Shown here in pieces: positions 1,935-60,293 of a stretch of 64,000 nucleotides of DNA. The position numbers and the translations under genes were made by a program. Where the stretch lies: positions 5,933,110 to 5,997,109 of the forward strand of contig NC_057718.1 in the NCBI RefSeq assembly GCF_004010195.1, written 5' to 3'. This stretch comes from Chiloscyllium plagiosum. Its lineage: Eukaryota. Below the pieces are notes generated by a model, which was given only the letters and a program-made list of their open reading frames with translations, did not search any database and was not told the origin of the DNA. Each line of letters starts with the position of its first letter. Position 1 is the stretch's first letter.

Positions 1935-2052
1935 GTTCTGAGGAAGGGTCACTGGACTAGAAAAGTTAACTTTAATTTCTGTCCACAGATGCTGCCAGAC
2001 CTGCAGAATTTCTCCAGCAATTTCTGGTTGTTTCTGATTGACAGCATCTACA
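1935..2052 (+). mobile_element. Short Penelope-pLTR-like element with a degenerate hammerhead motif (family D)
   Basis: gtt-CTGAGGA-a-gggtc-actg-gacta-GAAA-agtt-aac followed by cacagatgctgccagacctgc. Related copies at 7885-8060, 44225-44285 and 59193-59400. Confidence 0.65.
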
Positions 2053-2643
2053 GTCCTACTGCAAATGACACTGGCATTATAAAATGGAATTCACTGATTC
2101 GCACCTCAGGGCTGAGACTATTTTGGTCTGGAAGAAGTCTCTGCTCTTTGGACCACCTTACTAATCACCAGATTGGAGTTTTTATTGATTCTTGCACGGG
2201 ATGACCAATCTCGAATTGCCTTGGATAAGGCCGTGGTGATCAACCTTCTGGAACTGCTGTGTTCTGGGTGTTTCCAGAGTGCCAATAGAGAGTAAATGCC
2301 TACATGGTGACCCAGTGACAGTGATGGAATGTCAATACAGTTTCTGGTCATGATGGTGAATCGTTTGGAGGGACCACATGCAGGTGTGATGTTCCCACGC
2401 ACATATTACCCTTGTCTTTCTCGGTGGCTGAAGTCATCATTTTGCAATTGAGAATCTTGCAAAGGTATCTTTGTTTTTAACCTGCTTTACAAAGGCACCA
2501 TTGGTACTTCCCCAGTACCTTCAGGCACCTACTATTCAATGTCTAAGTCATCAAGATACATAGGAATGCAGGGATTGCTGCCGTCCAGCTAACTATGCCC
2601 TTGAGCTGACAGAGTAGGAAGAGTTAAGAGTTAACCAGAGTTG

Positions 2644-2920
2644 GGGCGGCATGGTGGCTCAATGGTTAGCACTGTTGCCTCACAACGCCAGGGACGCAGG
2701 TCCAATTGCAGCCTTGGCTAACTGTCTGCATGGAGTTTGTACCTTTTCCCCGTGTCTGCATGGATTTCCTCCTACAGTCCAAAGATATTCAGGTTAGGTG
2801 GGTTGGCAATGGGAATTGTGGGATTATAAGGTTGGGGACTGGGTCTTGGTGGGATGACCTTCCAACGGTTGGTATAGACTTGATGGGGTGTATAGCCTTT
2901 TCTGCACCGTAGAGATTCTG
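2644..2920 (+). mobile_element. HE1-type V-SINE
   Basis: tRNA-like head tggtggctcaatggttagcactgttgcctcac, V-domain tggagtttg.ac..tccccgtgtctgc.tgg.tttcctcc, LINE-derived tail. Confidence 0.85.
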
Positions 2921-3564
2921 TCAAGGACACTACAATCGAGTCACAGCAAGGGTAAATATAAGCCAACATCATTTTGCTGGGGAATGATAGGCTGGATTTA
3001 ATTAATTTAATGGGGGAAGCCGAGCAGGGGAGCAGGCTAAACTTTGTAACTCAGTCTTGAGAGGCAGAACAACCATCCACCCAGATGCATGAGCAGCATG
3101 ATATCATATTGCTGTAGGTGCTGTCTGTTGCCCTTGGCTTTACACATTCAATTACCAGGTCCAAGAGACCGCTCAAGCAATATCTTCCATTCTGCTGGAA
3201 TGCTTGTCTGTTTCCAATTACCACAACCACTGCCCACTGCTGTTTGACTCACCTTGCTGAGCTATACTGCCACACACAATGAAAGCTGTCCTGAACCAAC
3301 ACTGACTTCCCACTCATCCACAACCTCCTTCAACCTGGAAAAGTTCCAAAGCCTGCTTATTCCCAAGCACACATCATAAAGTTAGGAAACCATAACATAA
3401 CAGCAATTGCTTGTTTGATAAGTTTACTTACCTTCCCACACATTTCACTATGGGGTCCTCCCTCCAGCCTAGCCAGCCTTCATAATATCCAGATGCAATG
3501 TGAAGACATTGGGCTCTCCTCATTGAATATTAGACAGTCTCCAGTTTTCAAGCTGTCACTAAAA

Positions 3565-3845
3565 CGACACAGTGGCTCAGTGGTTAGCACTACTGCCTCA
3601 CAGCACCAGGGACCCGGGTTTGATTGCGCCCATGAGCAGCAGCCTGTGTTAAGTTTGTATGTTCTCCCTGTGCCTGTGTGGGTTTCCTCCGGGTGCTCTG
3701 GTTTCCTTCCAAAAGTGTGCGGGTTAGGTGGATTGGCCATTGGAAATGCAGGGTTATAGGGTAGAGATGTAAGTCTGGGTGGGATGCTGTTCAGAGGGTT
3801 GGTGTGGACTTGATGGGCTGAATGGCCTGCTTGTACATTTTATGA
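3565..3845 (+). mobile_element. HE1-type V-SINE
   Basis: cacagtggctcagtggttagcactactgcctcacagcaccagggacccgggtt...tgggtttcctccgggtgctctggtttcc. Confidence 0.85.
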
Positions 3846-4793
3846 AAATGCTGAGAATTCAGCCAACCATCTTTTAAGTGACTGTAACTGACACTACCTA
3901 GCTAGCAATAACTCTATGCTACTATCTCATGAAGTATAGGATGCCCTGAAGGCCTCATTTTAGCAGCACATTTAATAAACTGACCTTAAAACCAAAGCAT
4001 TGGTTAGTTCAGTTGAGTGGACAGCTGGTTTGCAATACAGAGTGACACTGCCTGACGTTTTACACAAAGGTCCCAACTTGCCCTGGTCTGAGGTGTGGTG
4101 ACGCCCAGGTTAAACTCACCATGAGATGCATCTCTCTCTCTCTCTCTCTACACACATAATGAGGGAACAATCAAGGGGATAATGGTGGTCCTTTCTTGCT
4201 AAAACCCACACAGTTCAACAAGTTCCCAGGAAATCATGCTGTCGGATCTCAATCTTCTGAAGACATAATTTATTAGCCATGTCCACTATCCCTGGTTAGA
4301 GGTCAAAACAAATTTAGCTGCCTGACGTAACCAGCCATTTGGACTAATTCAGTGCCCATCGTAATGCCAGCTTAAGGTCAGCTCCAAGGAGCTTTTGGAT
4401 GTAAAACAGAAAAAAAAGCACAAAACTTCCAAAGGAATTTATTATAACTTGAAATATAGAGCTAATAATGCGCCTGTTATATAAAATAAATAATCAGTCT
4501 TGATAGCTTTACCAGCCTTTGTCTCTATATTTGACCACTTCTGGGATGTGGCTATTATAAAATATGCCTACAGGTCAGCTCTTGACTTTTGTCCGGATTC
4601 AGTCAGGCATATGGTTCCGTAGTATAAGCTGCAACTGGCAAACAGATGAACAGGAATGATTTTTCCAATGCCCCTCTTCAATTCTCTGAGGGGGATGCTG
4701 TTCACACTGAAGTTACGGTTGCTCAGTGTGCAGGAGAAACACCTGCGTGCCAGATGAGCTCCATTAGCAATACGCTCTCAGAGATTGATTCGG

Positions 4794-4830
4794 TCAGCTT
4801 CCAAAATATTTAATGTGAAATTTCTTTCTT
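4794..4830 (-). CDS. Candidate terminal coding exon (E6) of an unidentified minus-strand gene: (L)RKKFHIKYFGS*
   Basis: Strong acceptor ctctgttttgtttttactgcag| at 4831. Phase-2 start matches E5. TGA at 4796-4794. Repeat-free sequence downstream with minus-strand AATAAA at 4438-4443. Confidence 0.5.
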
Positions 4831-5180: not shown

Positions 5181-5412
5181 TTGTTGTGGTTCTGTTCGCC
5201 GAGCTGGAAGTTTTTGTTGCAAACGTTTTGTCCCCTGGCTAGGCAACATCATCAGTGCTTGGGAGCCTCCTGCGAAGCTTCGCAGGAGGCTCCCAAGCAC
5301 TGATGATGTCGCCTAGCCAGGGGACGAAACGTTTGCAACAAAAACTTCCAGCTTTGCGAACAGAACCACAACAACGAGCACCCGAGCTACAAATCTTCGC
5401 ACAAACTTTGAA
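5181..5412. mobile_element. Head-to-head Penelope pLTR remnant forming a ~194-bp palindrome (5181-5374)
   Basis: Arms of ~97 bp centred on aag|ctt (5277/5278). The right arm is near-identical to the Penelope 3' end at 49711-49841. Confidence 0.9.
5297..5336 (+). ncRNA. Minimal type-I hammerhead ribozyme motif (family B, core intact)
   Basis: gca-CTGATGA-t-gtcgcct-agcc-aggggac-GAAAC-GTT-tgc: helix I gca/tgc, helix II with one mismatch, palindromic ACGT helix III, GUU cleavage triplet. Confidence 0.8.
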
Positions 5413-5619
5413 TGCATAGGTTTGGCTTGTATTTCCATCAGGATGATCTGCTCCAAGTGCTGATCTTCTCAATCATAAGATTAGATGTAGGGAGGGTCAT
5501 TGATGATCGCACAATGTTCAGCACCATTCACTACTCCTCAGATACTGAAACAGTCAATGGGGATGTGCAGATAGACCCAGCAAACATTCAGGCTTGAGCT
5601 GCAAACATTATTCCTCTTT

Positions 5620-5840
5620 TTCACACAGAAGGTGATGCGTGTGGAATGAGCTACCAGAGGAAGTGATAAAGGTAAGTACAATTACAACATTTGAAAGACA
5701 TTTGGAGAGACACTTAAAGCTGAAAGGCTTACAGGGATATGGACCAATTGAAGACAAATGGGTCTAGTTAAGTTTTGGAAACCTGGCATGCATGGATTAG
5801 TTAGGCCAATGGGCCTGTTTCTGTGCTATATGACTCTTTG
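5620..5840 (+). mobile_element. CR1 LINE 3' end
   Basis: FTQKV..VWNELPEEVI..FERHL remnant and gggcctgtttctgtgctatatgactct tail. Confidence 0.8.
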
Positions 5841-6004
5841 ACACTGATACACAGTGGGAACAGTGTATCACCTACAAGATGCAGATGCACGAAGCAACCT
5901 TTGACAGCACCTTCCAACCGTGACTTCTACCAGCTGGAGAATAAAGGGAATAGATCAATAACAAAGGGACATAATATTAATGGCAGGATATTTATCTTCG
6001 AATT

Positions 6005-6319
6005 TCTACAGTGCAGAAAGAGGCCATTCAGGGCACCAAATCTGCACTGACCCTGAAGTGCATCCTACCCAATCCCCATATTTATTATGGCTAATTCACC
6101 AAGCTTGCAAATCCCTGGACATCGAGGGCAATTTAGCATGGCCAATCCACCTAACCTGCACATCTTTGGATTGTGAGAGGAAACCAGAGCAGCCAGAGGA
6201 AACCAGTGCAAACACAGGGAGAATGTGCAAACTCCACACAGACAGTCACCTGAGGCTGGAATCAACTTGGCTCCCTGGTGCAGTGAGGCAGCAGTGTTGA
6301 CCAATGAGCCACCGTGCTG
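6005..6319 (-). mobile_element. HE1-type V-SINE
   Basis: Reverse complement of the HE1 pattern (gaatgtgcaaactccacacagacagtcacc...gtgaggcagcagtg..gagccaccgtg). Confidence 0.85.
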
Positions 6320-7186: not shown

Positions 7187-7348
7187 CTGAAAATGTGTTG
7201 CTGGAATAGGAAAATCCAGGGAACAGGAAAATCGACGTTTCGGGCATAAGCCCTTCTTCAGGAATGAGGAAAGTGTGTCCAGCAGGCTAAGATAAAAGAT
7301 AGGGAGGAGGGACTGGGGGAGGGGCTTTGGAAATGCGATAGGTAAACC
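7187..7348 (-). mobile_element. Short hammerhead-bearing element (family C) with 15-bp TSD
   Basis: TSD catcatatttcaaag at 7172-7186 and 7349-7363; contains the motif at 7230-7265. Confidence 0.8.
7230..7265 (-). ncRNA. Minimal hammerhead ribozyme motif (family C, core intact)
   Basis: Minus strand: attc-CTGAAGA-a-gggc-ttat-gccc-GAAAC-GTC-gatt. Confidence 0.75.
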
Positions 7349-8779
7349 CATCATATTTCAAAGGCAAGGAAACTCTGATCAAATCCTTGACAATGATTAA
7401 AAGCTTTGGAGGATCAATTTACTTTTATTTACTTTTATTTAGATTTATTAGTTATCCTAGAAGGGCTAGATTTCAGGGCAATACACTCTCCTTAAACGAG
7501 TCAGAGGAAAGAATCAAAAGGGTGATGGGGGTTGGATGACACTCCATATCTCTGTTCAGTTGCACGAGCCTTAGTGCAGCCAGGGTTAAAAATCAAGATA
7601 ATCCACAGGCTGGGAGCAAGTGTTCAAGTCCTGCCATGACATTTGAATTTGATAAAAATCTGTAATTCAAGATTAGCCTGGAGTTATATCTCCTCCTCAC
7701 ACAGAGATATTACCACTGTGCTCCTGACTCCACTAAGGCTAGCTTGACTGTACGACTGTAGTTTAAAAGCTCATCTGCTTCACTAATACTCTTTTGGAGA
7801 AACAAATCTGCTGCCCTTACCTTGTCAGGCCGACATATGACTCCAGATCTACAGCAGTGTGATTGACTCTCATCACCGTGTAATACTGCAGATGCTGAAA
7901 GTCTGAAACAAACATAGAGGATGCTGGAGAAACTCAGCAGGTCTGGCAGCATCTGTGGCGAGAGGAATGGAAGAAGAGTCGCTGGACTCAAAACATTAAC
8001 TGTGCTTCTCAATCTACAGATGCTGCCAGACCTGCAGAGTTTCTCCATCAATTTCTGTCTCTTGGGCTGACTCTTAACTGACCATCCAAAATGGTTGAGG
8101 CAGTCACTCAGGTCAAAGGGCATTTAGGGATGGGAAATTAATATTGGCCCAGCCAGTAATACCCACATCTTGTGAACTTTATTTTTAAAGCTAGACAGAA
8201 CACTATGTTTACTGACAAAGTTTATATGTGAATAATCTTGACTGAGGTGAGATAATGAAGAAATTCTGGTTCCAGTCAAGTTTAAATTTGACTTGAAAAG
8301 TTCGATAGTTGAACTCTCAGAGCACAAAGCTCGAATCAAAATGTTCTGCTGCATTTTTTTCAGTGAAGTCAATCTGGATCCTTATAACCTTTGCCTCCAT
8401 TCTTAACTAAGGATGTAACTGGGCGCTTTCCAACTAAAATATTGTTGAAAAAAGAACACATTTTGTCAAGCCTTTTGCTTTGCACTCTTTAAGATATTGC
8501 ATTTAAACCATAAATTCAAGCGGAAACCCAGCATTCATATTGTGTGAGAGGGGAGTGCTGATTAGTTGCCAACACAACTTTGATCAGTAGAGATATTGCC
8601 ATGGAGAATGCACCCATTCATGCTGATTGACAGTTAACAGCCAGGCTTTGTTTAAATTTTAAAAGGCAGGTTAACTGATTGGTCCAAGAATTGCCTCTAA
8701 GGAATGGACCAGCATATGGCTATCACCTATTATGTTGGGTTGAAACAGGCTCATATTGTGCACAGTTATAGATAGGATC

Positions 8780-9200: not shown

Positions 9201-9239
9201 TGTTCCCTTGTTTGAGTTTGGCATTGGGCGTAAACTAGA

Positions 9240-16073: not shown

Positions 16074-18602
16074 CGAGTTTTGAGAAGATTTGTAGCTCAG
16101 GTTGAGGTTCTGGATGTAGGTTTGCTCACTGATCTAGAAGGTTCATTTTCAGACATTTCATCACCCTACTAGGTAACATCTTCAGTGGGCCTCAGGCAAA
16201 GCAGTGTCCATGATTCCTGCTTTCTGTTTATATGCTTGGGTTTCTTTGGGTTGGTGATGTTATTTCCTGTGGTGATGTAATTTCCTGTGGTGATTTCCTG
16301 TTTTCTTTCTCAGGGGGTGGTAGATGGGGTCTAGCTCAATGTTGATAGAGTTCTGTTTGGAATGCTATGGTTCTAGGAATTCTCGTGCATGTCTCTGTTT
16401 GGCCTGTCCTAGGATGGATGTATTCTCCCAGTCAAAGTCGTGTCCTTCCTTATCTGTGTGTACAGATACTAGTGAGAGAGGGTCATGTCGTTTTGTGTCT
16501 AGTTGGTGGTCATGTATCCTAGTGGCTAGTTTTCTGTCTGTTTGTCCAATGTAGTGTTTGTTACAGTTCTTGCACGGTATTTTGTAAATACCATTCGTTT
16601 TGCTTGTTGTCTGTATAGGGTCTTTCAATTTCATTAGCTGCTGTTTTAGTGTGTTGGTGGGTTTGTGGGCTACCATGCTGCCAAGGAGTCTGAGTAGTCG
16701 GGCAGTCATTTCCGAGATGTCTTTGAGGTAGGGGAGAACGTTTAGGGTTTCTGGACGTGTTTGTCTGCTTGTTTGGGTTTGTTGCTGAGAAATCAGTGGA
16801 CTGTGGTCATTGGGTACCCATTCTTTTTGAATACACGGTATAGGTGATTTTCCGCTACTCTGCGTAGTTCCTCTGTACTGCAGTGTGTGTTGGCTCATTG
16901 AAATAATGTTCTGATGCATCCACATTTGTGGATGTTGGGATGATTGCTTCTGTAGTTTCAGTATTTGGTTCGTATGTGTTGTTTTCCTGTAGACACTGGT
17001 TTGAAGTTGCCCATTGGCTGTTCGCTCTACTGTGACATCAAGGAATGGCAGTTTGTTGTTGTTTTCCTCCTCTTTAGTGAATTTTATGCCAATGCGGGTA
17101 TTATTGATCGACTTGAAAGTTTTCTCTAATTTTGTTTCGTTTAGTGATGACAAAGGTGTCATCCACGTAGCAGACCCAAAGCTTGGGTTGGACGTTTGGC
17201 AGAGCTGTTTGTTCAAGTCTCTGCATTACTGCCTCTGCTAAGAACCCTGATATCGGAGATCCCATGGGTGTTCCGTTGGTTTGTCTGTAGGTTTTGTTGT
17301 TGAAGGTGAATGTGTGGTAAGGCATAGGTCCAGTAGCTTCCCAATGCTGTCCTTGCTGATGAAGTTGGTGGGGTTTGGAGCGTGTCTTTGGGTCTTCTAA
17401 TAGTGTAGTCTGTGTTTCCTTGGCCAGGTTAATGTTGATTGATGTAAACAGGGCTGTTACATCAAAGGAGACCATTATTTCATCCTCTGCTATCTTAGTG
17501 TCTTTGATGGTCTCCAGGAATTCTTGCGTGAAGTGGATGGAGTGGTGTGAGTCTTCTACTAAGTATTTTAGCTACGAAGGTGTAGCTCCTTGACTAATCT
17601 GTAAGTTGGTGTTCCAGGTAGCAAGGCTATGGGTCTGAGAGTGGGCTCCTGGTTTGTGAATTTTGAGTAATCCGTAGAAGCGTGGTGTGTTGGATCTGTT
17701 TGCTTTCATTTTTTGGAAGTCGGTCTTATTTATTGCTCCAGATTTCTGAAGGTTTTTGAATAAGGCTGTGATTTGGTTCTCCAGTTGTGGGGTTGGGTCT
17801 ATCACCACCTGTTGGTAAGTGTTGGTATCTGTCAGTAGTGTGTTCGCTTTTTCAATGTAGTCTCTTCGATTTGTATTGAAGACATTTAGATAGTACCTGT
17901 TTCCTTAGGCATTCGTGCAGGAGGTACAGCTGTTCGTGGGTGGCGCTCTGTCGGATGACATTCGTTTCCCATTTTCGGGCCATTCTTAGCGTATTGCGCC
18001 CATAGGTCTTAGCGAATTTTGAGAAGATTTGTAGCTCAGGTTGAGGTTCTGAATGTAGGTTTGCTCGCAGGGCTGGAATGTTCATTTCCAGACATTTTGT
18101 CATCCTACTAGGTAACATCTTCAGTGGGCCTGAGGCGAAGGAGTGTACATGATTCCTGCTTTCTATTTATATGTTTGGGTTTCTTTGGGTTGGTGATGTT
18201 ACTTCCTGTGGTGATGTCATTTCCTGTTTTTTTTTCTCAGGGGTGGTAGATGGGGTCTAACTTGATGTGCTTGTTGATAGAGTTCCAGTTGGGACAACAC
18301 ATCCACCTTAGGACAAACCAAACAGAGACACACGCGAGAATTTCTAGAAGCATGGCATTCCAACCGAAACTCTATCAACAAACACATCGAGTTCGACCCC
18401 ATCTACCACCCCTGAGAAAAAGCACATGAAATGACATCACCACAGGAAATAACATCACCAATCCAAAGAAACCCAAACACATAAACAGAAAGCAGGAATC
18501 ATGGACACTGCTTCGCCTGAGGCTCACTGAAGATGTTACCTAGTAGGGTGACGAAACATCTGGAAGTGAACCTCCCAGGTCAGCAAGCAAACCTACATCC
18601 AG
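16074..18602 (-). mobile_element. Penelope-like element: decayed RT plus GIY-YIG endonuclease, direct pLTRs and an inverted pLTR, 12-bp TSD
   Basis: PRFYGLLKIHKPG, MVSFDVTALFTSI, GTPMGSPISG, YVDDTFV, KLPFLDVTV, GIYKIPCKNCNKHYIGQT.RKLATRIHDH. pLTR at 16077-16330 repeated at 18017-18290, inverted copy at 18290-18602. TSD aaaaagcaagag at 16062-16073 and 18603-18614. Confidence 0.93.
18524..18563 (+). ncRNA. Minimal hammerhead motif (family A) in Penelope pLTR; minus-strand sister copies at ~16149-16188 and ~18088-18127
   Basis: tca-CTGAAGA-t-gttacc-tagtag-ggtgac-GAAAC-ATC-tgg. Confidence 0.72.
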
Positions 18603-18619
18603 AAAAAGCAAGAGAAGAA

Positions 18620-25140: not shown

Positions 25141-25220
25141 TTTTCATTAATTTACTTTTCTTTTCAATTGTCCACAATATAATAAGGGACAATTCCTGAA
25201 CTGAATTGAAATGAATTGAA

Positions 25221-26198
25221 ACTGCCATTCCTAGATGTCACAGTAGAGTGAACAGCCAATGGGGAATTTCAAACAGAAAAACAACACATACGGACCAAAT
25301 ACTGAACTACAGAAGCAATCATCCCAACACCCACAAATGAAGCTGCATCAGAACATTATTTCAATGAGCCAACACACAATGCAGCACAAAAGAGCTACGC
25401 AGAGCAGAGGAAAATCACCTATACCATGTATTCAAAAAGAATAGGGACCCAATGACCACAGTCCACCGATTTCTCAGCAACAAACTCAAACAAGCAGACA
25501 AGACATGTCCAAAAACCCTAGCCACTCTCCCCTACATCAAAGGCATCGCAGAAATGACTGCCAGAATACCCAGACCCCTTGGCATCATGGTAGCCCACAA
25601 ACCCACCTACACACTAAAACAGCAGCTAATGAACTTGAAAGACCCTATACAGACAACGAGCAAAACTAATGCCATTTACAAAATACCGTGCAAGGACTGT
25701 AACAAACACTACATTGGACAAACAGGCAGAAAACTAGCCACCAGGATACATGAACACCAACTAGCCACAAAAAGACATGACGCTCTTTCACTAGTATCCT
25801 CACATATGGATGAGGAAGGACACTGCTTCGACTGGGACAACACATCCATCCTAGGACAAGCCAAACAAAGACACACAATAGAATTCCTAGAAGTATGGCA
25901 TTCCAACTGGAACTCTATCAACAAACACATCGAGTTAGACTTCATCTACCACCCCCTGAGAAAAGGAACAGAAAGTGATTTCACCACAGGAAATAACATC
26001 ACCACAGGGAATGACATCATCAACCCAAAGAAACCCAATCATATAAATAGAAAGCAGGAATTTTCAGCATTGCTTCACATGAGGTCCACTGAAGATGTTA
26101 CCTAGATAACAAAATGTCTGGAAATGAACCTTTCAGCTCAGTGAGCAAACCTATATCCAAAACCTCAACCTGAGCTACAAATCTGCTCAAAACTCACT
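25221..26198 (+). mobile_element. 5'-truncated Penelope-like element (GIY-YIG region plus pLTR)
   Basis: LPFLDVTV, TLPYIKG, NAIYKIPCKDCNKHYIGQTGRKLATRIHEHQ (ORF 25452-26105). TSD atgaattgaa at 25211-25220 and 26199-26208. Damaged hammerhead motif at ~26087-26120. Confidence 0.92.
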
Positions 26199-26199
26199 A

Positions 26200-26815: not shown

Positions 26816-26974
26816 TTAATGTGTTAATGTGAATTAAGGGCATCTGGACAATGATGGCTCAGTACTTCCAAACGGTGTTAACCTTGATATCCCTCATAAA
26901 TGTATTTTTCAACACAGCCACTTTTTTGTCTTCCTTTACTATTCTTTATATTTCTGCAATAAGTACACAGACGC

Positions 26975-27365
26975 TGGTATCCCGTCACCAAGTCCCCCTT
27001 TCTTTAACATTCCTGATGAAGGGCTTATGCCCGAAATGCTGATTTTCCTGCTCCTCCTGCTTCTCGGATGCTGCCTGACCTGCTATGTTTATCCAGCACC
27101 ACATTCTCAACTCTGATCTCCAGCATCTGCAATCCTCACTTTCACCTCGCTCAGAGTCAGTCCTCAACTGAGGAGATTCTAATCTCCAGGTTATTTTTTT
27201 TTGCATAGTACACTGGCTGTGGCCAATCAGCTCAGAGTCAGTCCCTGAACTGAGGAGATTATAAATCTACTGGTTATGTCGGTCAGCCAGGTCTTTCCTG
27301 ATTTGACCAAGTTAACAACCCTAATCAAGGATCTAATAATCAACAAGACCAAGTTGGTTACAATC
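26975..27365 (-). mobile_element. Gypsy-type LTR fragment interrupted by a family-C hammerhead element (27010-27148, plus strand)
   Basis: ctggtatcccgtcaccaagtc matches LTR 33297-33318 in reverse. The insert begins ttc-CTGATGA-a-gggc-ttat-gccc-GAAA-tgct. Confidence 0.75.
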
Positions 27366-29553: not shown

Positions 29554-29683
29554 AGGCGAAAGTGAGCACTGCAGATGCTGGAGATTAGGGTGGAGTGTGT
29601 GGTGCTGGAAAAGCACAGCAGGTCAGGCAGCATCCGAGGAGCAGGAAAATTGACATTTCAGGCAAAAGCCCTTCATCAGGAAA
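29554..29683 (-). mobile_element. Family-C short hammerhead element
   Basis: Minus strand: ttc-CTGATGA-a-gggc-tttt-gcct-GAAA-tgtc, then ctgctcctcggatgctgcctgacctgctgtgcttttccagc. Confidence 0.8.
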
Positions 29684-32600
29684 TTGAGAACTGGGTAAAT
29701 CCACGTCATGATTTTTAACTAAGTTAAGATGATTGACAGAGGCATCTGACTTTGGTTTAAGCCTTAATGAGACGCTGAGTGACTGTTTGATAATTGAGAT
29801 TAATGGTGTGAATGTACAAAAGTGCCCAATAGCTGTAGCCCAGATGGACATCAAACAAGCACTACAGCTGGCTTTATCATTGGAGAAAGTAGCAAGTGGA
29901 GCATGTGAGTTGTAGACTCTCGCCAGGCCGACCGAGCTTGGGGAACACCGCTTGAGTGAAGGCGGTTGCACAGCCTCACTCAGGACATATCCTGAGCAGA
30001 GGGAGTCTCGGTCAGCCCACAGCAAAACTCCAAAACAAAGCCAAGCTTCAGCCAAATGGTTAAAAGTATTTTTCAGGATCCAGGCTGGAGAGTTTTTGTA
30101 GTTGCTGCTGGAATGAGGACTTGAGACAGCAAAAGAGACTCACTAGATTAAATTGAGTAAAGGAAGTTAGAAGCTGGTGTCCGGGAGAGTGCACACACTG
30201 GAAAGTTCACTTACATCTGATTTGAAACAGTTAAGTTGCATAGCAATATCCAAATCAGAACCAATCAAAATAAATGTCTGATTAAATGGTCACCCGGTTC
30301 TAATGGAGGTCAATACTAGTGCAGCCAGTTCAGAGATTGCTGAACTAGTCTTTAACTGAATTCCCTCTGGATTCCAATCTGTAAGTTTGCCAGTTGACCA
30401 GGAAGCAATTCCATGATTCTGCAAGGTCCACCCAGTGCTATTTGTCTTAGAGACAAAAGTGGAGGCAGAAATCAGGAAGTTGGAAAGTGAAGGCTTCATC
30501 AAACCAATGTGGTGTGAGGAATGGACAGCACCTGTCATACCAATTGGGAGCCCAATGGGCTAGTTCCCCTTTGTGTGGATTTTAAATTAATGATAAACTG
30601 CTTCTCACAGCTGGATAAATACCCAGTCCCTCACAGAGAGGATTTATACACAGAGCTGGCAGGGGGAGCTGTCCTTCAGGAAGCTGGACATGAACCATGT
30701 GTCCATGCAATCCATCAGGGTTTGTATAAATATCCCAGACTGTCATCTGGGGTATTGTCAGCCTGTGCAAGTTTTCAGCAGATGATGGAGAACATTTTAT
30801 AAGGTGTACCCCAGGTCACCATTTATCTAGGTAACAAGGAAGACCAGTTAGGAGCATTTAGAGAACTTGGACATAGCCCTTAGGTGTTTGTCCCAGGCGA
30901 GTGTATGCCTTAGAAGGGAAAAATGTGTATTCCAGGCCCCACAAGTGGCCTACTTGTGTGACAGAATCAACAAGACCAGGTTATACCGGTGGAAGATAAA
31001 CTGAGGGCAACCAAAGGTGCCCCAGTTCCCACATCAGTACAACAGTTTAGATTGTCCTCGAGCTGGTGAATTATTGCGGAAAGTTCACACATAACCTGGC
31101 CTCCATCCTGGCACCTTTGCATCACCTCCTAAAAAAGGGGTCAGCCTTAGAAATGGTCACGTAGCCAAGCTATAGCTTTCAGGGAAGAGAAGAAACAGTT
31201 ATCATCCTCGAAGGTGTTGGCACATTATGATCCCAAGCGAGATCTGGTATTGATATGCGGTGCCTCTGCATGTGGCATCAGGGTAGTATTTGTTCATAGG
31301 TGGCCCAATAGAGAGGAACACCCAATAGTGTATGCATCCAGGACTTTGGCTAATGCAGGGTGTAAATATGTTCAGATAGAGAAGGAAGGTTTGGCGGTCA
31401 TACTTAGAGTCAGGAAGATCCAACAATTTACTGATGTAGATTTGTAACAATAATGGACACAAACCCCTGCTAGGTCTATTTAAGAGGACATGGCAGTACC
31501 ACCCATAGCTTCAGACCAAATTCTATGGTTGATCCTAATACTAAGTCATAACAAGTTGGAACATTGTCCAACAGGCAAAGTAGCAAATGCTGATACATTG
31601 AGCTGCCTCTCACTGGCAGATACACAACCGATGGTACGGCCACTGGAAGAGTCTGTAATGGTTCACATTTTCTGGACACACTTCCAGTCACAGCTGACAA
31701 TATCAGACTTCGGAAGCAGAAAGTTCCAATCCTGGACAAATTGAAGCAGCTGGTGGTGATGGAGAAACCAAAGGGCGGTCAAAACCAGAATTGAAACCTT
31801 TCTGGACCCGAAGAAATTAGATCACATGTTATTATGGAGAGCAAGAGGGATTGTCCTGAGCAAAGGTGTCACCACACACTGGCTGAACTCCACCGGGGGT
31901 GGGGAGGAGGGAGGCTCCAGGGGTTTCCAAAATGGAAATCTTGGTGAGATGTTATGTCTGGTGGCTAGGATTGGATGGAGACATAGCTGCATTGGTGGGG
32001 GCAATACCCAGAGTGCCAGCAAGGTCAAACGTTGCCACCAGCTGCTCCCCCACATTCGTTGGAATGGTTGGGTAAACCCTAGACTCAGTTACACATTGAC
32101 TGTGCAGGCCCTTTCATGGGCTCAATGTTCTTAATCACTGTGGACGCCCACTCAAAGTGGCTGGACATGTACGAGTTCATTCGTCAAACATGGGGACAGC
32201 GATAGAAAACCTGCACGCAATTTTTGCAATACACATGCTCCCGGAATTGTTGGTCATGGATAACAGGCCATCATTTACCAGCAGAGAATTTGAATATTTC
32301 CTAAACTCAAATGGTATTCAACATATAAGGACAGCTCTATACCATCCATCATCCAATGGTCTGGCACAAAGAGCAGTCCAAACTTTGAAGGACGGCTTAA
32401 AGAAACAGCCTACAGCTTCACTCAATACCAAACCATCCCGGTTCCTGTTTGATTATAGGGCCACCCTTCAAGCAACAACAGGGACAGCTCCAGCAGAGTT
32501 ACTAATGGGGAGAAGACTCCACTCCAGGTTAAATCTGATCTTCCCGGCCTTGGCTGGGGAGGTGAGTGAAACAGCATCAGGAACACCAATGCTGGACACA

Positions 32601-35606: not shown

Positions 35607-35762
35607 GAAATGATGACTGACCTTCCCTGATCTACCCACATGCTGAAATGATGACTGACCTTCCCTGATCTACCCACATGCTGAAATGATGACTGACCTT
35701 CCCTGATCTACCCACATGCTGAAATGAGACTGACCTTGCCTGATCTACCCACATGCTGAAAT
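35607..35762. repeat. 38-bp minisatellite, 4 copies (gaaatgatgactgaccttccctgatctacccacatgct)
   Basis: Three identical units plus a fourth with two changes. Confidence 0.95.
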
Positions 35763-43809: not shown

Positions 43810-45709
43810 TTCCCCTGACTGTGAGGCATCAGGCTGGGTGGGAAGGCATTTAGTCATCGGTCAATTCAGGGAGGGGCAGTGGTGAGTCAGGGTGTGCCAG
43901 TGCCATCAGTGATGGACACAGCAGAAATACAGTCCACAGGCTTGGCCACAGACAGTTGTTCTTTTGGTATACATACAGTCCAGGGGATCTGCGGTCTGGG
44001 GAATGGACAGGGGTCAGTTCTGTGAGTCCGGCAGCGGCAGTCAGAGGAATCATGGATCATCTGTCAAAGAGCTGCTGTTGTACAGGTCAGAGTCTGGCCT
44101 GTCATTGTCTAGGAGTGCTAGTTGAAATCAGTAGGAAGCCTGGGGCCAGTACGATCCTGGGGCCTGCCTGGTGATCATTATGGAGGGTGGAAACGGGTCT
44201 TGTAAGGCAATGGAAGACTTCTTCAGCTCTGAGGAAGAGTCATATTGGACATGAAATTTTACTTCTGTTTCTCTATCCACAGACATTGCATTTTTTAAGA
44301 AATCAAGGCTTGAAATCACTTGGATTTACATTGTACAGAAATCATTGTTGTTTGAAAGGATCTAGGATGCAGAAAGATAAGGTTTTGATTGGATTTATAT
44401 TATGATATTAGAAACTTTACTGAAAAGTATGGTTAAAAGCAGCTCACACAAATCAGCTGCCTGCAGTGAAGTAAATACTAACTATAAATCTTGTTAAAAT
44501 AGCATTCTTATTGAAAGGAAACCCTGATATAAAAGACAGGACAGACAAGAATATTGTGTACTTGAAGCCTTATCTTTGGTTTATTAAGCCCCACATCCAA
44601 CTGTTGCAATCATGGAAATTGGAAACATCAGTTGACTAAAACATTCCAGGCTTATGCTAAAATGTCACCAAGACTTTTTTCTCTTTATTCATTTGCAGGA
44701 TGACAGTGTCGCTGACTAGGCAGCATTTATTGCCCAGAGGGCAGTTAAGAGTCAACCACATTGTTGTGGGTCTAGAGTCACATGTAGGCCCGACCAGGTA
44801 AGGATGACAGATTTCCTTCCCTGAAGGGAATTAGTGACCCAGATGGGTTGTAGTTTGTAAATATCAGAGCACAGGAACAGCAAAGGCTAAATCATTGCAA
44901 TTGTGCCGAATGAAGCTCATCTCTGTAGAATTTCAACACTCTAATACATTATTCTAGCTCAATTTTAATGCCAGTAATGGTTTCCATCTAACAAATTCAT
45001 CCAGATGGAATAAAGAATCTCATTCTAATACCCGTTCTCAAATATATGTTCTTTTCTCATTTGCATTTGTATTCTTTGGTTCCACTAATCTAATTTGTGA
45101 AGAATTTTACTTACAATCAGAATTAGTTTGCATCATTAATTCCATATCTATGACATACTGTATTGTCAAAAGGCAGAAATTCCAGGGAATGATAATACAG
45201 GCAACTTAATGGCATTAAGTAGGTGGGCCATAATTTGCTGAAATTGTTGAGTTCCACTGAGACTCCCACTGATAAAGTTCCAGTAACTAATTATCATAGT
45301 ATTGAACCAAATTGTTCATAATCTTGAATGCCAAGGTTTAATTTTCCAAATTAATGCTACTGTGATCCCATCAGACCCTTAGATCATTGGGGAATATGAC
45401 CAGTGAGCTCACAACAAAGGAAAACATCTTTAGTGAAGGGAGGTAGTGGTGTAGTTTTAATGTCACTGGACATGTAATCCCAAACCCCAGGCTAATGTTG
45501 TGAGGACATGGGTTTGAATTTCATCGTGCCATTTCATAAAAGTCTGGAACAAAAAGCTGTCCTAATGGTGACCAGGTAACCATTGATGATTGTTGGGAAA
45601 ACCCATCCCAGTTCACCAATGTCCTTTAGGGAAGGAAACTGCCATCCTCACCCGATCTTGTGGACATGTGACTCCAGACCCACAGCAAAGTGGTTCACTC
45701 TTAACTGCC

Positions 45710-46225
45710 CCTGATTGATTGGTCGATTGATTTATTTATTGTCACATGTCCAAAGTATGGTGAAAAGATTTGTTTATAAGCAGTACAGGCAGATCAAACT
45801 AAGTAAGAATGTGCAGAACAAAAGATGAAGGCATGAAGGTAACATTGCACAGGGTGTACAAGAGAGATCAACTTTAGCAAGGTCCTCATCGTTTGAGGCT
45901 AGACAGTCCATTCAACAGTTGAGAGTGTGATGCTGGAAAAGCACAGCCAGTCGGCAGCATCCGCAGTCCTGCATCCGCTGATCTCCAGCATCTGCAGTCC
46001 TCACTTTCTCCTAGTTGATTATAACCTTACTGCGAAGCCTCTTCCAAGGATGCCTACCTTAAAGAAGTTCTCCTGGATGCTGCCTGACCTGCTGTGCTTT
46101 TCCAGCACCATGCTCTCGATTCTGATCTCCAGCATCTGCAGTCCTCACTTTCTCCTGGTCCATTCAATTGTCTAATAACCAATTGTCTGGGAAGGAGCAG
46201 TCCCTGAAACCACTGGTGTGTATGC
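45710..46225. mobile_element. Rex1/Babar 3' tail (minus) with an inserted mosaic of family-C fragments (~45920-46157)
   Basis: Junction duplication gtccattcaa (45906 and 46158); tccagcatctgcagtcctcactttctcct occurs twice, with an inverted piece at the start. Confidence 0.7.
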
Positions 46226-47364: not shown

Positions 47365-48870
47365 GTCATAGAATCATAGAGCCATACAGCATAGAAACAG
47401 ACCCTTCAGTCAACCAGTCTCCACCAACCTTGTTCCCAAATCAAACTAATCCAACTTACCTATGTTTGACCCACATCCCTCCAAACATTTCCTATTCATT
47501 TACTTATCCAAATGTCTTTTAATGTTGTAACTATACCAGCATCTACCACTTCCTCTGGCAGTTCATCCTACTACGAACCACCCTCTGTGAAAGAAAAGTT
47601 ACCCTTCGTGTCCTTTTTAAACCTTTCTCCTCTCACCTGAACAATATGTCCCCTAGTTTTGAACTCTCCAACCCTAGGGAAAAGACCCTTACTATTCACT
47701 TTATTCAACATGATATCCCAACTCCTATACTGTAAGTTCTGAGCAATGAAGGCAAGCGTGATAAATGCTTTCTTAACCACCCTGTCTATATGTGATGCAA
47801 ATTTCAAAGAGCTATGTACCTGCCCCCGTAGATCTCTGTCCTACAACATTACCCTGAGCCCCACCATTAATTATATAAGTCCTGCCTTTGACTTTTTTTA
47901 CTAAAATGCAATACCCCTCATTTATCCAACTTAAACTCTATCTGCCCCTTCTCAGCCCAATGACCCAATTAATCAACATCTCTTTGTAGTCTTAGATGGT
48001 CTTTTTCACTGTCCACTCCACCACCAATTTTGGCATCATCTCTAAGCTTACTAACTGTATTTCTTAAATTTTCATCCAAATTGATCATATAAATGAAAAA
48101 CAAAAGTGGCTCCAATATCGATCCATGTGGGACATTGCTGGTCACAGGGCTTCAGCCTGAAAAACAACCCTCGACCACCACTCTCTGTCTCCTACCATCA
48201 AGCCAATTGGCAAGCTCTCCCTGAATCCTATGTGATCCAACGTTACCAATCAGTCTACCACGAGGAACTATGTCAAAGACTTTACTAAAGTCAATGTAAA
48301 CCACGTCTTCTGCTCTGCCCTCATCAACTTTTCTAGATTAGAGGGCTTTTGCCCGAAACATCGATTTTCCTGATCCTCGGATGCTGCCTGACCTGCTGTG
48401 CTTTTCCAACACCACTCTAATCTAGACTCTGATTTCCAGTATCTGCAGTCCTCACTTTTGCCTCATCAATCTTTCCCTCGCACAAAGCCATGCTGACTAT
48501 CATTAAACAGTCCTTGTCTCTCCAAATGCATGTAAATCCAATCTTTCAGAATCACCTCCCACAATTTATCCATCACCGATGTCAGACTCATGGGTCTGAG
48601 TTCCCAGGCTTCTCCTTACAGCTTTTCTTGTCCGTCTGACGAGACTCCTTCCGATAAGCCTGGGAATGAAGACCTATGAGTCTGACATTGGTGATGGATA
48701 AATTGTTGGAGATGATTCTAAATGATAGGATTTACATGCATTTGGAGAGACAAAGACTGTTTAAGGAAAGTCAGCATGGTTTTGTGCGAGGGAAATCATG
48801 TCTCACAAACTCAATTAAGTTAACCAGAAAGATTGATGAGGCAGAGCAATAAGCGTGGTTTACATGGACT
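47365..48870 (-). mobile_element. CR1 RT/3' fragment (minus, 47365-48630) with an inverted RT piece (plus, 48656-48870) and a family-C insert (~48340-48462)
   Basis: IDRVVKKAF.TLAFI..LFPRVGEFKTRGH; SQHGFVRGKSCLTN on the plus-strand arm, with the homologous sequence on the minus-strand arm. Confidence 0.85.
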
Positions 48871-49509
48871 CTTTTTTCCTGTCCGGGAGCAGTGGGAGAC
48901 AGAGCGGAGGTGACGTTGGGACCAGGAGCTTGCCAGGAAGGTAAGTGAACAGTACAGATATTACCTTCGATGCCCGCGTCCTTATTCCTGTCCAGGAGCA
49001 GCAGGACACAGAGCGGAAAGGACGTTGGAGACCAGGAAGTAGCTGTGAAGGTAAGGACTTAGGATATATTTGGGTAGCGGCTAAACCCGAGAAACAACAC
49101 GTGCAATATCTCCCTCCTGCCCTCCTCCCCCACCCCAAACAGAAGAAAAGGACTCTGTAAGGTAAGGTTTTCTTTTTCTTTTCTTTTATATATTTAAGTG
49201 CATCATTTGGTATTAGTTAGTTGAGTTAAAGCTAAGGCTTACAATGGCAGGGGACCTCAGACCTGTAGGATATGCCTTTTGCTTGATGTGGGAGCTCAGG
49301 GATGTGGCTGACGTCCCTGACTCTTACACTTGCAAGAAGTGTGTCCAGTTGCAGCTCTTGTTTGACCCACATGACAGCTCTGGAGCTGCGGATGGACTCA
49401 CTGTGGAGCATCTGCGATGCTGAAGAGGTCGTGGATAGCACATTTAGTGAACTGGTCACACCGCAGGTTAGAGTTGCTGGGGGACACAGTGAATGGGTGA
49501 CCAAAAGGT

Positions 49510-49841
49510 GCCCAACATGAGCAAAACTAATGTAGTGTACAAAATACCATGCAAGGACTGCACAAAACACTATATAGGACAAACAGGAAGACAGCTAACA
49601 ATCCGCATACATGAACATCAACTAGCCACGAAACGACACGACCAGCTATCCTTAGTAGGTAGCGGCAGGGACAGACCACTATAAACACCGGAGGAAACAT
49701 CAAAGAAGCGCTTCGCAGGAGGCTCCCAAGCACTGATGATGTCGCCTAGCCAGGGGACGAAACGTTTGCAACAAAAACTTCCAGCTCGGCGAACAGAACC
49801 ACAGCAACGAGCACCCGCGCTACAAATCTTCACACAAACTT
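49510..49841 (+). mobile_element. Short Penelope insertion in CR1 ORF1 (GIY-YIG remnant plus pLTR), 12-bp TSD
   Basis: NVVYKIPCKDCTKHYIGQTGRQLTIRIHEHQ; TSD tgaccaaaaggt at 49498-49509 and 49842-49853. Confidence 0.92.
49730..49769 (+). ncRNA. Minimal hammerhead ribozyme motif (family B, core intact)
   Basis: Identical to 5297-5336: gcaCTGATGAtgtcgcctagccaggggacGAAACGTTtgc. Confidence 0.8.
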
Positions 49842-56412: not shown

Positions 56413-56540
56413 AGGCGAAAATGAGGATTGCAGATGCTGGAGATTAGAGTCGAGAGTTTGGTGCTGGAAAAGCACAGCAGGTCAGGCAGCATCCGAGGAG
56501 CAGGAGAATCGGCGTTTCGGGCAAAAGTCTTTCATCTGAG
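56413..56540 (-). mobile_element. Family-C short element (hammerhead core mutated)
   Basis: gcagatgctggagattagagtcgagag..aagcacagcaggtcaggcagcatccgaggagcaggagaatcggcgtttcgggc. Confidence 0.8.
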
Positions 56541-57269
56541 AAAAGAAATTCTGATCCCTGATCAATGTTATTATTTAAACAATTACAGAAAACAGGTTGA
56601 AAAGGAAAATCTTCAGAGTTCTGTTCATGTATACAGAAAAGAAAATCTCTTTGAGAGCCATTAGCAAACATATTGATAGGCTCTCCCTCAAAGTCCATGT
56701 GAAAAATAATCTGTCCTTCTTGATAATAAGAAGACCTTTCCAATTATCATATCAATAACTTTTCATCTGTGTAATAATCTTATGTTCTTCTCTTAAGAGT
56801 ACATTGATTGTCTTGTGTGTATGTTCGGAAACTGAGCACGATGGTAACCAAATTTACCACTAAACCAGGTTTCACTTTGAGGTCTCTCTCTTCAAGTAGG
56901 CAAAGGATGAAGGGAAATCAATGAAAATAAATGATTGTGACAAAATATTCTCAGCATTACACTCTGCGTATGAGTCCATTGGGAGACACCACATGAAGGT
57001 TTTTGTGAATGAAAACTGCACTCCATAACCTGGACTTTAATGCATCAGGAAACCATTAAATCATCCCAACCTGTTAATATTGTGAATAGTTGGGCACAGC
57101 TTTATAGCATTACTGACAAGTCATTCAGAAGCCTGATTGACATAAAACCAAAAGATGTAGGACCAGAATTAGGCCTTTCGGCCCAACAAGTCTGCTCCAC
57201 CATTAGGCCATGGCCAATATATTTCTCAACCTCATTCTCTGCCTTCTCCCCTTTGATCCTGTCATGTTA

Positions 57270-58890: not shown

Positions 58891-59192
58891 TTCTTTTGTT
58901 AATACTGTGAGTCCATGTAATACATAACAGAGTGATAGTACACATTTCATTTTGGCAGTTTGAGAATTTGAATGCATTGAAAAAGTCTGTAAAGCTGGTA
59001 TCAATAAAAGTGATCTTAAATGTTCACTAATTTAATGAAGAAAGTCTGTCATCATTGCCCAGTGTGTGGGCACTGCACGTGACTTCAACCATATATCAGG
59101 TGGCTGACTTTTAGTTGCCTACTTATGTAGCCTACCTGACAATTTGAATTATATTGGAGCCCCTGGTGAGTGTCAGGGGATTCGTTAGCTCA

Positions 59193-59400
59193 GAAACAGA
59201 AACAGAAGTTGCTTCTAAAATCTCAGCAGGTCTGGCAGCATCTGTGAAAAGAAATCAAAGTTAACATTTCAGGTCGAGTGACCCTTCCTCTGAGGAATGT
59301 TAACTTTGATTTCCCTTCACAGATGCTGCCAGACCTGCTGAGCTATCAGAAGCAATTTCTGTTTCTGTTCCTGATTTACAGCATCTGCATTTCTTCTGGA
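59193..59400. mobile_element. Palindromic head-to-head family-D element inserted in a SINE (59170-59620)
   Basis: Arms ~59195-59268 and ~59297-59370; minus-strand ..GAGGAagggtc-actc-gacct-GAAAtgtt-aac remnant at the centre. Confidence 0.75.
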
Positions 59401-59640
59401 TTTTGTATGCTTGGTTATCTCGGTGGGCTGGATAATTAGCTTGCAACGCTAGTTAATAGCGTGGAATGTGTTCAGTTCCCACACCAGAAGTAATTGCCAT
59501 GAAGGACTAACCTTCTCAACCTGTCTCCTGCCTGAGGTGTGGTGGCCCTCAGGTTAAGACATCACCAGTCATCCCTGCCCAAAGAGACAGCAGCCCTATG
59601 GGCTACAGTGGCTGTGCCATTTCAGTGATTGATTAGCATT

Positions 59641-59920
59641 AGCAAGTTTTGAGAAGATTTGTAGCTCAGGTTGAGATTCTGGATGTAGGTTAGCTCGCAT
59701 TTACCACCCACTGAGAAAAAGAACAGGGAATGACATCACCAAAGGAAATTATGTCACCATAGGAAATGACATCACCAACCCAAGGAAACCCAAACATATA
59801 AATAGAAAGCAAGAAACAACAGCAGTGCTTTGTCCAGAGGCTCACTAAAGATGTTACCTAATATGGTGATAAAACATCTGAAAATGAACCTTCCAGCTCA
59901 GTGAGCAAACCTACATCCAT
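59641..59920. mobile_element. Penelope pLTR remnant (head-to-head) with approximate TSD
   Basis: Matches 16077-16130 and 18400-18600; flanks tgattagcat/tgattggcat. Confidence 0.85.
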
Positions 59921-60200
59921 TGATTGGCATGTTTAAAAACAGTGGCTGACCCATTTTTCTTATTAAGCAGGACAATGCCCTGGAAATATTTGAGTGAAAG
60001 AAATTATTAAAACACAGGAATTAACTATCCGTCAGTATGGAAGACTATGTAACATCCTCTAATTACACTCCATACATACCTAGTTCATCCAAGTTCGGCT
60101 CAACTTGTCAACCCAGATCCAACTAATACCTCACAATATCTATATACAGTGTTTACCTTCCAGAAGGCTGAAGAATTACACTTTACTGTATCAGATAAAT

Positions 60201-60293
60201 TCCTGAAGAAGGGCTTATGCCCGAAACATCGATTCTCCTGTTCCCTGGATGCTGCCTGACCTGCTGCGCTTCTCCAGCAACACATTTTCAGCT
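60201..60293 (+). mobile_element. 93-bp family-C hammerhead element with perfect 15-bp TSD
   Basis: TSD ctgtatcagataaat at 60186-60200 and 60294-60308; CTGAAGA-a-gggc-ttat-gccc-GAAAC-ATC at 60203-60230. Confidence 0.88.

Follow-up and report, generated by a model that had tools for sequence, protein, structure and literature searches.

What are the short repeated motifs in a 64,000-nt stretch of the genome of the shark Chiloscyllium plagiosum (NCBI RefSeq assembly GCF_004010195.1, contig NC_057718.1, positions 5,933,110 to 5,997,109 of the forward strand; this whole stretch is referred to as the window), and which elements carry them? The motifs resemble minimal hammerhead ribozymes (min-HHRs) and fall into four sequence families (A to D). 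They are very probably the min-HHR modules of Penelope-like elements (PLEs), retrotransposons whose single open reading frame (ORF) encodes a reverse transcriptase (RT) followed by a GIY-YIG endonuclease. The full explanation, in which the min-HHRs are part of a PLE terminal module of approximately 100–140 nt that forms a pseudo-long terminal repeat (pLTR) or the 3' end of the element, is probable. The window contains at least 18 terminal modules from the four families, which represent two deep lineages. Most of these modules are dead insertion products and three are intact.

The original prediction placed hammerhead motifs at 17 sites in the window. Extraction and alignment to family references show that all 17 sites carry the motif, intact or decayed, at the coordinates and on the strands given (Table 1). 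Each site has CUGANGA followed by a single extra nucleotide, then a G...C hairpin and GAAA, and finally (C/T)(G/A)T and H, in intact or decayed form. The reference for each alignment is an intact genome copy of the same family from outside the window. The bare pattern CTGANGA-N{8,30}-GAAAC has five matches in the window (5300+, 7237-, 18527+, 49733+, and 60203+). Shuffled versions of the window give 1.20 +/- 1.09 matches, and five are reached in one of 100 shuffles. The three copies thought to be intact, near 5297, 49730 and 7230, are the copies at 5295-5338+, 49728-49771+ and 7229-7266-, and these also keep CGAAACGTH. The copies at 18527+ and 60203+ keep the catalytic core and have ACAU in place of ACGU as a result of CpG decay. 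Relative to their family reference, most of the other copies carry C-to-T or G-to-A changes at one or both of the two CpG sites of the motif (C11.1-G12 and C15.2-G16.2). Some decayed window copies have further substitutions or deletions besides the CpG changes.

A covariance model of the minimal hammerhead, a check that had been suggested along with the sites, recovers 16 of the 17 and one new copy (7970-7997+). The model is built from 18 motif copies, of which one is the window copy 7229-7266 and 17 are from elsewhere in the genome, and it was run unfiltered on the window. There are 14 matches at E <= 0.05 and 17 matches at about E <= 1. The copies at 44224+ and 48343+ are among the weak matches (E 0.4–0.9). 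The copy at 56507- has no match in the unfiltered window run because its motif is too degenerate to score. Outside of these repeat families, no match in the whole window is better than E 1.6.

The core nucleotides C3 U4 G5 A6 N7 G8 A9 ... G12 A13 A14 are intact in five window copies and in the references of families A to D. In all families, GAAACGUH is directly followed by the helix I strand and a helix III hairpin is absent. The palindromic ACGU, which had been named as a feature of PLE hammerheads, and the extra nucleotide after A9, which had been called a tolerated variant, are present in all families and match those of published PLE hammerheads (PMC4209133; the literature is cited here from excerpts of the papers). 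In that source, the hallmarks that were not imposed by the search are consensus families that covary, an extra nucleotide between A9 and G10.1, a G10.1-C11.1 pair and a palindrome at positions 15.2–16.2. All of the min-HHR hallmarks of PMC4209133 are found here.

Covariation was examined in an 18-row alignment made up of 17 of 20 fetched loci and the window copy 7229-7266. The three loci that were left out (L111, L114 and L121) have a junction, and thus non-native sequence, as their 5' flank. In the alignment, 78.7% of cells are paired, compared with 58.2% in shuffles (0 of 500 reach the observed value) and 18–39% when the partners are slid. Changes on both sides of a pair are seen in eight of the 11 pairs overall. 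In helix II, 96.4% of cells are paired and three of the six pairs have changed on both sides. In helix I, 62.2% of cells are paired. The inner pair types of helix I include C-G, A-U and U-A, and its fifth pair is unsupported. Helix II is 4–6 bp long, and helix I is 3–4 bp long in most families. Compensated versions of helix II are present in C-type copies (GGGC/GCCC, GAGC/GCUC and GGGU/ACCC), in D-type copies (GGGUC/GACCC and GAGUC/GACUC) and in the A/B lineage (GUUACC with GGUGAC or GGUAAC; GUCACC with GGUGAC). The variants of helix I are CCA/UGG, UCA/UGA, GCA/UGC, AGUU/AACU and AGCU/AGCU. The covariation claimed for helix I is supported by compensatory changes between most families, both in the 18-row alignment and in the genome copies. 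Helix I and the inner pairs of helix II serve as the independent tests of the structure because they are absent from the search pattern.

The family A element of the window ties the motifs to PLE coding sequence. Two direct family A repeats, at 18047-18252(-) and 16108-16289(-), enclose minus-strand ORF remnants (in-window BLAST). The RVT_1 domain is found at 17101-17571(-) with E 3.4e-10 and 40.4 bits (Pfam). GIY-YIG matches are found at 16365-17225(-) with 21.6 bits and at 25368-26105(+) with 19.8 bits, where the curated Pfam cutoff is 22.6 bits. No single GIY-YIG match is decisive, and the identification is made from the consistency of the matches together with where they lie. Endonuclease remnants lead directly into A or B motifs at 25210-26000+ (A), 49508-49746+ (B) and 18290-18430+ (A) in tblastn searches. 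Nine homologues of the window ORF are longer, at 534–872 aa. Three of them were rescanned, and two of these have RVT_1 with a weak GIY-YIG match C-terminal to it. At loci elsewhere in the genome, the upstream part of long family B and C copies contains GIY-YIG-type frames, with a score of 22.4 bits at locus L042. The RT and endonuclease ORF remnants have nothing below E 0.3 among PDB sequences. The PLE link through ORFs covers families A, B and C. Family D and two variant families from elsewhere in the genome, E and F, are assigned to PLEs because their tail is homologous to that of family C.

The layout of the elements is congruent with this assignment. PLEs have been described as a pLTR, an ORF and a second pLTR, with an inverted truncated copy on the 5' side (PMC8557442). 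The family A element of the window has the same layout, including a third, inverted copy at 18360-18604+. According to the same source, pLTRs, adjacent inverted 5'-truncated copies and tails of 30–40 bp are typical of PLEs. The earlier assignment of the motifs to minimal type-I hammerheads of the Penelope-like kind is supported by the RT/GIY-YIG context, the pLTR layout and the matching hallmarks.

Every motif in the window sits in a repeat of 100–200 nt (in-window BLAST and family profiles). Families A and B are homologous, with 69% identity over approximately 110 nt in the in-window BLAST and cross-hits between their profiles. Families C and D have in common a conserved tail box approximately 20–30 nt downstream of the motif. 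There is no cross-hit between the family profiles of A/B and those of C/D, and the families therefore form two deep lineages instead of four unrelated ones. The original prediction of four coexisting ribozyme lineages stands in that four families are present in the window, but these collapse into A with B and C with D. The helix II sequences, which had been called unrelated, are not all so, given the homology within each of these two groups. Genome-wide, there are more than four variant families, E and F included.

Between A9 and G10.1, families A and B have U as the extra nucleotide, and families C, D, E and F have A. Among the first 100 genome matches listed, this nucleotide is A in 96, T in three and G in one (counted by eye). 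In the genome matches listed, C-type loops recur as UUAU, UUUU, CUGU, UCAU and UAAU, and N7 is either A or U. An AUG is present in loop II of the C subfamilies with the loops UUAU, UCAU and UAAU and absent from loop II of those with UUUU and CUGU. The coding sequence suggests that families A and B resemble the Penelope/Poseidon clade and that family C is Neptune-like. An extra Zn-finger-like CX2-5CxxC is found in the linker before the endonuclease in the Neptune clade (PMC8557442). A CX4CX2C motif is located ahead of the endonuclease in the C-type frame of locus L042 (by eye, in one copy) and is not present in the A- and B-type ORFs examined. The clade assignment is a hint from this one copy and not the result of a phylogeny.

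Across the same 3.56-Gb assembly, the strict pattern CTGANGANG-N{8,28}-CGAAACGTH matches 66,464 + 66,535 = 132,999 sites, a density of about one per 27 kb. The reversed strict pattern, used as a control, has 48 + 48 = 96 matches. When CpG decay is allowed at both motif CpGs, there are 307,242 sites and 2,543 control matches. Both CpGs are thus retained in 43% of recognisable sites (132,999/307,242). The proportion points to largely recent amplification or to slow decay of these CpGs. By subtraction, 100,723 of the strict matches are C-type, with a helix II that starts with GGGC. The remaining strict matches have a nucleotide other than G at position 10.2 (23,816; A and B types, E and decayed C), a helix II that starts with GGGD (4,501; D, F and decayed C) or one that starts with GGH (3,959).

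First-look candidates number at least 1,103 for family B, 4,133 for family A, 1,153 for family C and 4,196 for family D, each of these being a lower bound. The scored copies are 97–100% identical to the window copy in family B, 88–94% in family A, mostly 85–88% in family C and 74–85% in family D. Copies of families B and C (30 loci each) have varied 5' truncation points and a fixed 3' end. An extra 3' tail is found in 11 of 30 C copies (approximately 34 nt) and in 10 of 20 A copies (approximately 20 nt, by eye). The published optional PLE tail is 30–40 bp (PMC8557442). Target-site duplications of approximately 8–14 bp surround several copies (by eye). All 30 of the fetched family D copies are head-to-head pairs, approximately 200 nt long, of a module that comprises the motif and its tail box, and the extra tail is often one-sided. 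In a separate observation, at least half of the sampled 31-mers from the family B module at 49682-49844 are present in 14 public runs with four organism labels (labels A–D), and this module may be shared in near-identical form among several of the labelled organisms.

In families A and B, the hammerhead lies across the boundary of two reading frames. The preceding ORF terminates at a UAG in loop II, and a new frame starts at an AUG formed by A9-U9.1-G10.1 and extends through the 3' end of the module. The predicted cut is 25 nt past the ATG, and the 3' end of the module is approximately 70 nt (short form) or 90 nt (with the tail) past it, as counted by hand. Both signals are present in the intact window copy at 5295..5338+, and the frame of the endonuclease remnant at 49508..49746+ stops at the loop II TAG at 49747-49749. 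In the family A element of the window, the frame from the ATG of the upstream HHR runs on into the N-terminal region of the PLE protein. Families C and D do not have an AUG at this position because A, instead of U, follows A9. A C-type open frame in locus L042 (L042:675-1619) extends from the GIY-YIG region across the hammerhead, with its stop approximately 35 nt past the cut site.

How the modules would act can be proposed by analogy with other PLEs. Dimers of PLE hammerheads have reportedly been described by Lunse, Weinberg and Breaker. Lacking a helix III, a single motif is presumably unable to fold by itself, as the literature implies. Two copies would instead pair through the ACGU palindrome and form a shared helix III, as proposed for PLEs elsewhere. 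Cleavage would follow GUC or GUU, would probably depend on assistance by the protein of the element, and would process multimeric PLE transcripts. The chance that the modules self-cleave in vivo is judged to be about even. The head-to-head pairs would fit priming on both DNA strands.

Among the closest known systems is PAc, a Poseidon PLE of Anolis carolinensis with a protein-assisted HHR (Frangieh et al. 2024, PMC11167929). The PAc HHR cleaves only in the presence of the protein, both DNA strands are cleaved and extended, a tail is present, and reverse transcription initiates at an internal AC-rich site within the ORF. As in PAc, the ORF of families A and B begins at stem II, and the cut is 25 nt past the start codon here and 26 nt past it in PAc. 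The 3' end likewise lies within the N-terminal coding region and is AC-rich, and the tail is optional. The 3' end here is positioned approximately 70 nt (short form) or 90 nt (with the tail) past the ATG, compared with 111–118 nt in PAc. Copies are found in both orientations, which fits the cleavage and extension of two strands. Unlike PAc, families C and D have no AUG after A9.

The C-type copies may also bear on where insertions end. A profile of the C-type module plus 190 nt of upstream sequence was run on 347 kb, made up of the window and the locus flanks with the targeted centres masked. In this sequence, 45 of 63 copies start between -16 and +9 nt of C3, and six start further upstream. 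Many of the profiled copies are head-to-head pairs with a junction in or near the hammerhead. Upstream sequence that is specific to a subfamily can mimic such a pile-up of starts and may explain part of it. Tiny C-type head-to-head pairs with the junction in or just upstream of the hammerhead are very frequent, and such pairs are seen in the flanks of the fetched loci L005, L011, L019, L021, L022, L025, L028, L043, L045, L048, L052 and L076. It is a speculative proposal, and one unlikely to hold in all of its parts, that this genome has one of the largest and densest stores of hammerheads among vertebrates, that most of them belong to one Neptune-like lineage and that the HHR region shapes the ends of PLE insertions. 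If so, the commonest C insertion would be a very short module or head-to-head pair with its inner end at or just upstream of the hammerhead. The hammerhead region would then mark the end of reverse transcription or of the template RNA, and the motif would have a structural role in PLE insertions beyond RNA cleavage.

Several results weigh against the assignment to PLE hammerheads or against parts of it. Rfam has no hammerhead family at the gathering score, at E <= 10 in the window, or in 5200-7300. The likely cause is that the motifs have no helix III hairpin and carry an extra nucleotide. The minimum-energy dimers that RNAcofold gives for A, B and C segments do not contain the hammerhead fold, although this is uninformative for an intermolecular helix of 4 bp. 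In the commonest C subfamilies, helix I consists only of C-G, U-A, a U.U mismatch and A-U, and all listed copies of family B have a purine-purine mismatch inside helix II. The 18 rows of the alignment were picked by hand from the matches listed, their core and G10.1-C11.1 pair are fixed by the search pattern, and their relatedness inflates the shuffle test. Coding constraint on the overlapping frames may contribute to the conservation of the motif. On the protein side, all GIY-YIG Pfam scores in the window, in L042 and in the longer homologues are slightly below the curated cutoff, the B-type ORF of locus L008 has no Pfam match at all, and no PLE ORF is found in the 1.3 kb upstream of the four D, E and F copies examined. 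In PAc, the one PLE whose biochemistry has been studied, HHR mutants left insertion in vitro unaffected, and no RNA-seq reads start or end at the cut site (excerpts of PMC11167929).

These points leave room for other explanations. Chance or protein-coding constraint alone is an extremely improbable source of the hammerhead likeness. The overlap of the motif with the end and start of ORFs in families A and B, the open frame through one C copy and the lack of an Rfam hammerhead match speak for such a source, but it does not account for 132,999 matches against 96 for the reversed control, for compensatory changes in both helices, or for the same core in lineages with unrelated flanks. The same architecture has also been published for the PLEs of many animals (PMC4209133). 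A more serious alternative is that the motif is shaped like a hammerhead and does not cleave in vivo, serving instead as an RNA platform for the protein of the element. It could bind the protein, place RT initiation approximately 70–90 nt downstream, or provide the context for the start of translation. This is possible but doubtful. In PAc, the protein-binding region is the first 172 nt of the ORF, starting at stem II (PMC11167929), and the absence of an effect of catalytic mutants and of RNA-seq ends at the cut is in keeping with a platform, as are the very short helix I and the AUG at A9-U9.1-G10.1 in families A and B. Against this, cleavage by the PAc HHR is observed in the presence of the protein, with rescue by C3G/G8C (PMC11167929). 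Every nucleotide of the catalytic core is kept in all families of both lineages even though the flanks no longer align, and the conserved core includes nucleotides without Watson-Crick pairing. The pile-up of C-type starts around C3 would suit a platform but is confounded by the subfamily-specific upstream sequence.

The short C and D units, especially the D palindromes of approximately 200 nt, could alternatively be non-autonomous elements of the retrozyme or short interspersed nuclear element (SINE) type that are moved by PLE proteins. These units would copy only the HHR and tail module and would not be truncated autonomous PLEs. This is unlikely. Single target-site duplications bracket whole palindromes (by eye), which fits one PLE-type insertion event, C-type copies grade continuously into ORF-bearing ones, and the junction points of the inverted pairs differ between copies, although several D copies do repeat the same junction forms (by eye). 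The abundance of family D, the head-to-head form of all 30 fetched copies and the missing ORF link in the four D, E and F copies examined speak for non-autonomous units. Vertebrate non-LTR retrozymes have been derived from PLE pLTRs, in a sample that includes one chondrichthyan (bioRxiv 10.64898/2026.07.22.740005). However, retrozymes are defined by tandem repeats, and the four tandem arrays of the window are all clear of the motifs. The motifs also do not have the loop-loop contacts and the helix III hairpin of canonical retrozyme HHRs.

As min-HHRs of PLE terminal modules, the shark motifs can be placed among known systems. Close to them are the PLE min-HHRs of Cervera and De la Pena (2014, PMC4209133). 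Both are type I, without a helix III hairpin, with a palindrome at 15.2–16.2, an unpaired nucleotide between A9 and G10.1, a G10.1-C11.1 pair and a location in pLTRs. Both also have many covarying families per genome and frequent single and opposite-strand paired copies. They differ in the host genome and the sequence families, and in their helix lengths: helix II is 4–6 bp here and 7–8 bp in Schistosoma, and helix I is 3–4 bp here and 4–5 bp there (PMC4209133). Members of the class have been reported from fishes, coelacanth, amphibians and reptiles, with approximately 4,000 min-HHRs in coelacanth and 9,000 in Xenopus tropicalis (PMC4209133). The 132,999 sites found here are more than 10 times these counts, although the descriptors differ and the numbers are not strictly comparable. 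Non-LTR retrozymes and the type-I HHRs of amphibian satellites (PMC7229834; bioRxiv 10.64898/2026.07.22.740005) are likewise dimer-requiring type I motifs that are derived from PLE pLTRs or related to them. Their HHRs are canonical, with contacts between loops 1 and 2 and a capped helix III, whereas the motifs here are minimal, and retrozymes form head-to-tail tandem arrays of 150–450 bp that have no counterpart among the motifs of the window. With 126,247 canonical motifs (PMC7229834), the axolotl genome, which is far larger, has a count of the same order as that of the strict sites in this assembly. The Rfam hammerhead families have the same catalytic core as the shark motifs, which none of them matches.

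PLEs are listed among the repeats of the whale shark (PMC8455134), and non-LTR retrozymes are reported in the one chondrichthyan genome sampled in bioRxiv 10.64898/2026.07.22.740005. No published description of these families was found in the literature on shark hammerheads and Penelope elements; Repbase and Dfam are outside this comparison. The C. plagiosum families belong to a retroelement type already known to carry ribozymes; they are new in their host and have a very high copy number, and they represent neither a new kind of ribozyme nor a new kind of element. They place a very large set of hammerheads in one more vertebrate genome and tie it to two PLE lineages. The subfamilies with compensated stems constitute a natural mutagenesis series for minimal hammerheads that depend on dimers or are assisted by protein, and the role of the hammerhead in PLE biology is still unsettled.

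Table 1. Hammerhead motifs and associated PLE features in the window (positions are those of the window; a point marks features without a strand)
Feature	Position	Strand	Score and remarks
Family D min-HHR, decayed	1933..1972	+	30.4 bits
Head-to-head pair of 5'-truncated family B ends	5181..5374	.	Arms 97 nt, 96% complementary, 0 nt spacer
Family B min-HHR, G12 to A and one helix II C-to-T	5217..5260	-	33.4 bits; inverted partner of 5295-5338
Family B min-HHR, fully intact	5295..5338	+	41.1 bits; predicted cut after T5333
Family C min-HHR, fully intact	7229..7266	-	52.1 bits (copy itself a row of the model); predicted cut after C7234, minus strand
Family D copy absent from the original list, truncated in core, in inverted pair 7922-8050	7970..8002	+	12.6 bits, E 0.99
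Downstream pLTR, 3' end of family A element	16108..16289	-	91% identity
Family A min-HHR, downstream pLTR, C11.1 and C15.2 to T	16147..16190	-	28.0 bits
Decayed PLE body: N-terminal frame, RT (RVT_1), GIY-YIG-type endonuclease	16368..18166	-	Pfam, tblastn
Upstream pLTR of family A element	18047..18252	-	88% identity to 18400-18604
Family A min-HHR, upstream pLTR, G12 to A	18086..18129	-	22.6 bits
Inverted 5'-truncated family A copy abutting upstream pLTR	18360..18604	+	Arms 18047-18292 / 18360-18604
Family A min-HHR, core intact, G16.2 to A	18522..18565	+	34.0 bits
Family A min-HHR, helix II deletion, G12 to A	26084..26123	+	24.0 bits; GIY-YIG coding remnant 25210-26000 upstream
Family C min-HHR, decayed at C15.2 and U16.1	27008..27045	+	37.3 bits
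Family C min-HHR, decayed at C11.1 and C15.2 (CpG sites)	29647..29684	-	27.7 bits
Family D min-HHR, heavily decayed	44224..44264	+	14.1 bits, E 0.44
Inverted pair of C/D-type tails without HHR part	45921..46117	.	Family profiles
Family C copy truncated within HHR, CUGANGA half absent	48343..48367	+	12.8 bits, E 0.92, model positions 14-32
B-type PLE endonuclease coding remnant running into HHR	49508..49746	+	tblastn, 84-94% identity to B-type ORF of genome locus L008
Family B min-HHR, fully intact	49728..49771	+	41.1 bits; predicted cut after T49766
Family C copy, degenerate 5' core	56507..56544	-	Family profile matches; motif model does not
Head-to-head pair of family D ends	59179..59385	.	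Arms 90 nt, 87% complementary, 27 nt spacer
Family D min-HHR, decayed, centre of head-to-head pair	59258..59299	-	20.5 bits
Family A min-HHR, heavily decayed (G5 to A, G12 to A)	59840..59883	+	17.9 bits
Family C min-HHR, core intact, G16.2 to A (ACGU to ACAU)	60198..60235	+	43.2 bits

There are five inverted pairs in the window. The near-perfect hairpin at 5181-5374 has sub-threshold matches to microRNA (miRNA) models, the sole matches that Rfam gives, including mir-873 (47.8 bits, where the gathering score is 95) and several others. A miRNA gene at this position is rejected. The hairpin is the abutting inverted pair of family B ends, and the miRNA models match because the PLE insertion structure forms a hairpin. 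For annotation, the PLE modules account for common short palindromic repeats and for spurious miRNA-like hairpins of this kind.

The window also contains features of other types. ORF remnants of the long interspersed nuclear element (LINE) type, unrelated to PLEs, are located at 50813-53333(+), with Exo_endo_phos at 50813-51313 followed by RVT_1 at 51817-52638 (E 1.1e-25). A weak match to the integrase core (rve) at 32100-32612(+), with 24.2 bits and below the cutoff, is probably a remnant of an LTR retrotransposon or a DNA transposon. A frame at 26347-26823(-), adjoining a family C copy, has an ALKBH8_N match with 23.6 bits (cutoff 21). Two young tandem duplications, neither of which has a hammerhead motif, are found at 43188-43810 (311 bp x 2.0, 98%) and 35607-35762 (38 bp x 4.1, 98%).

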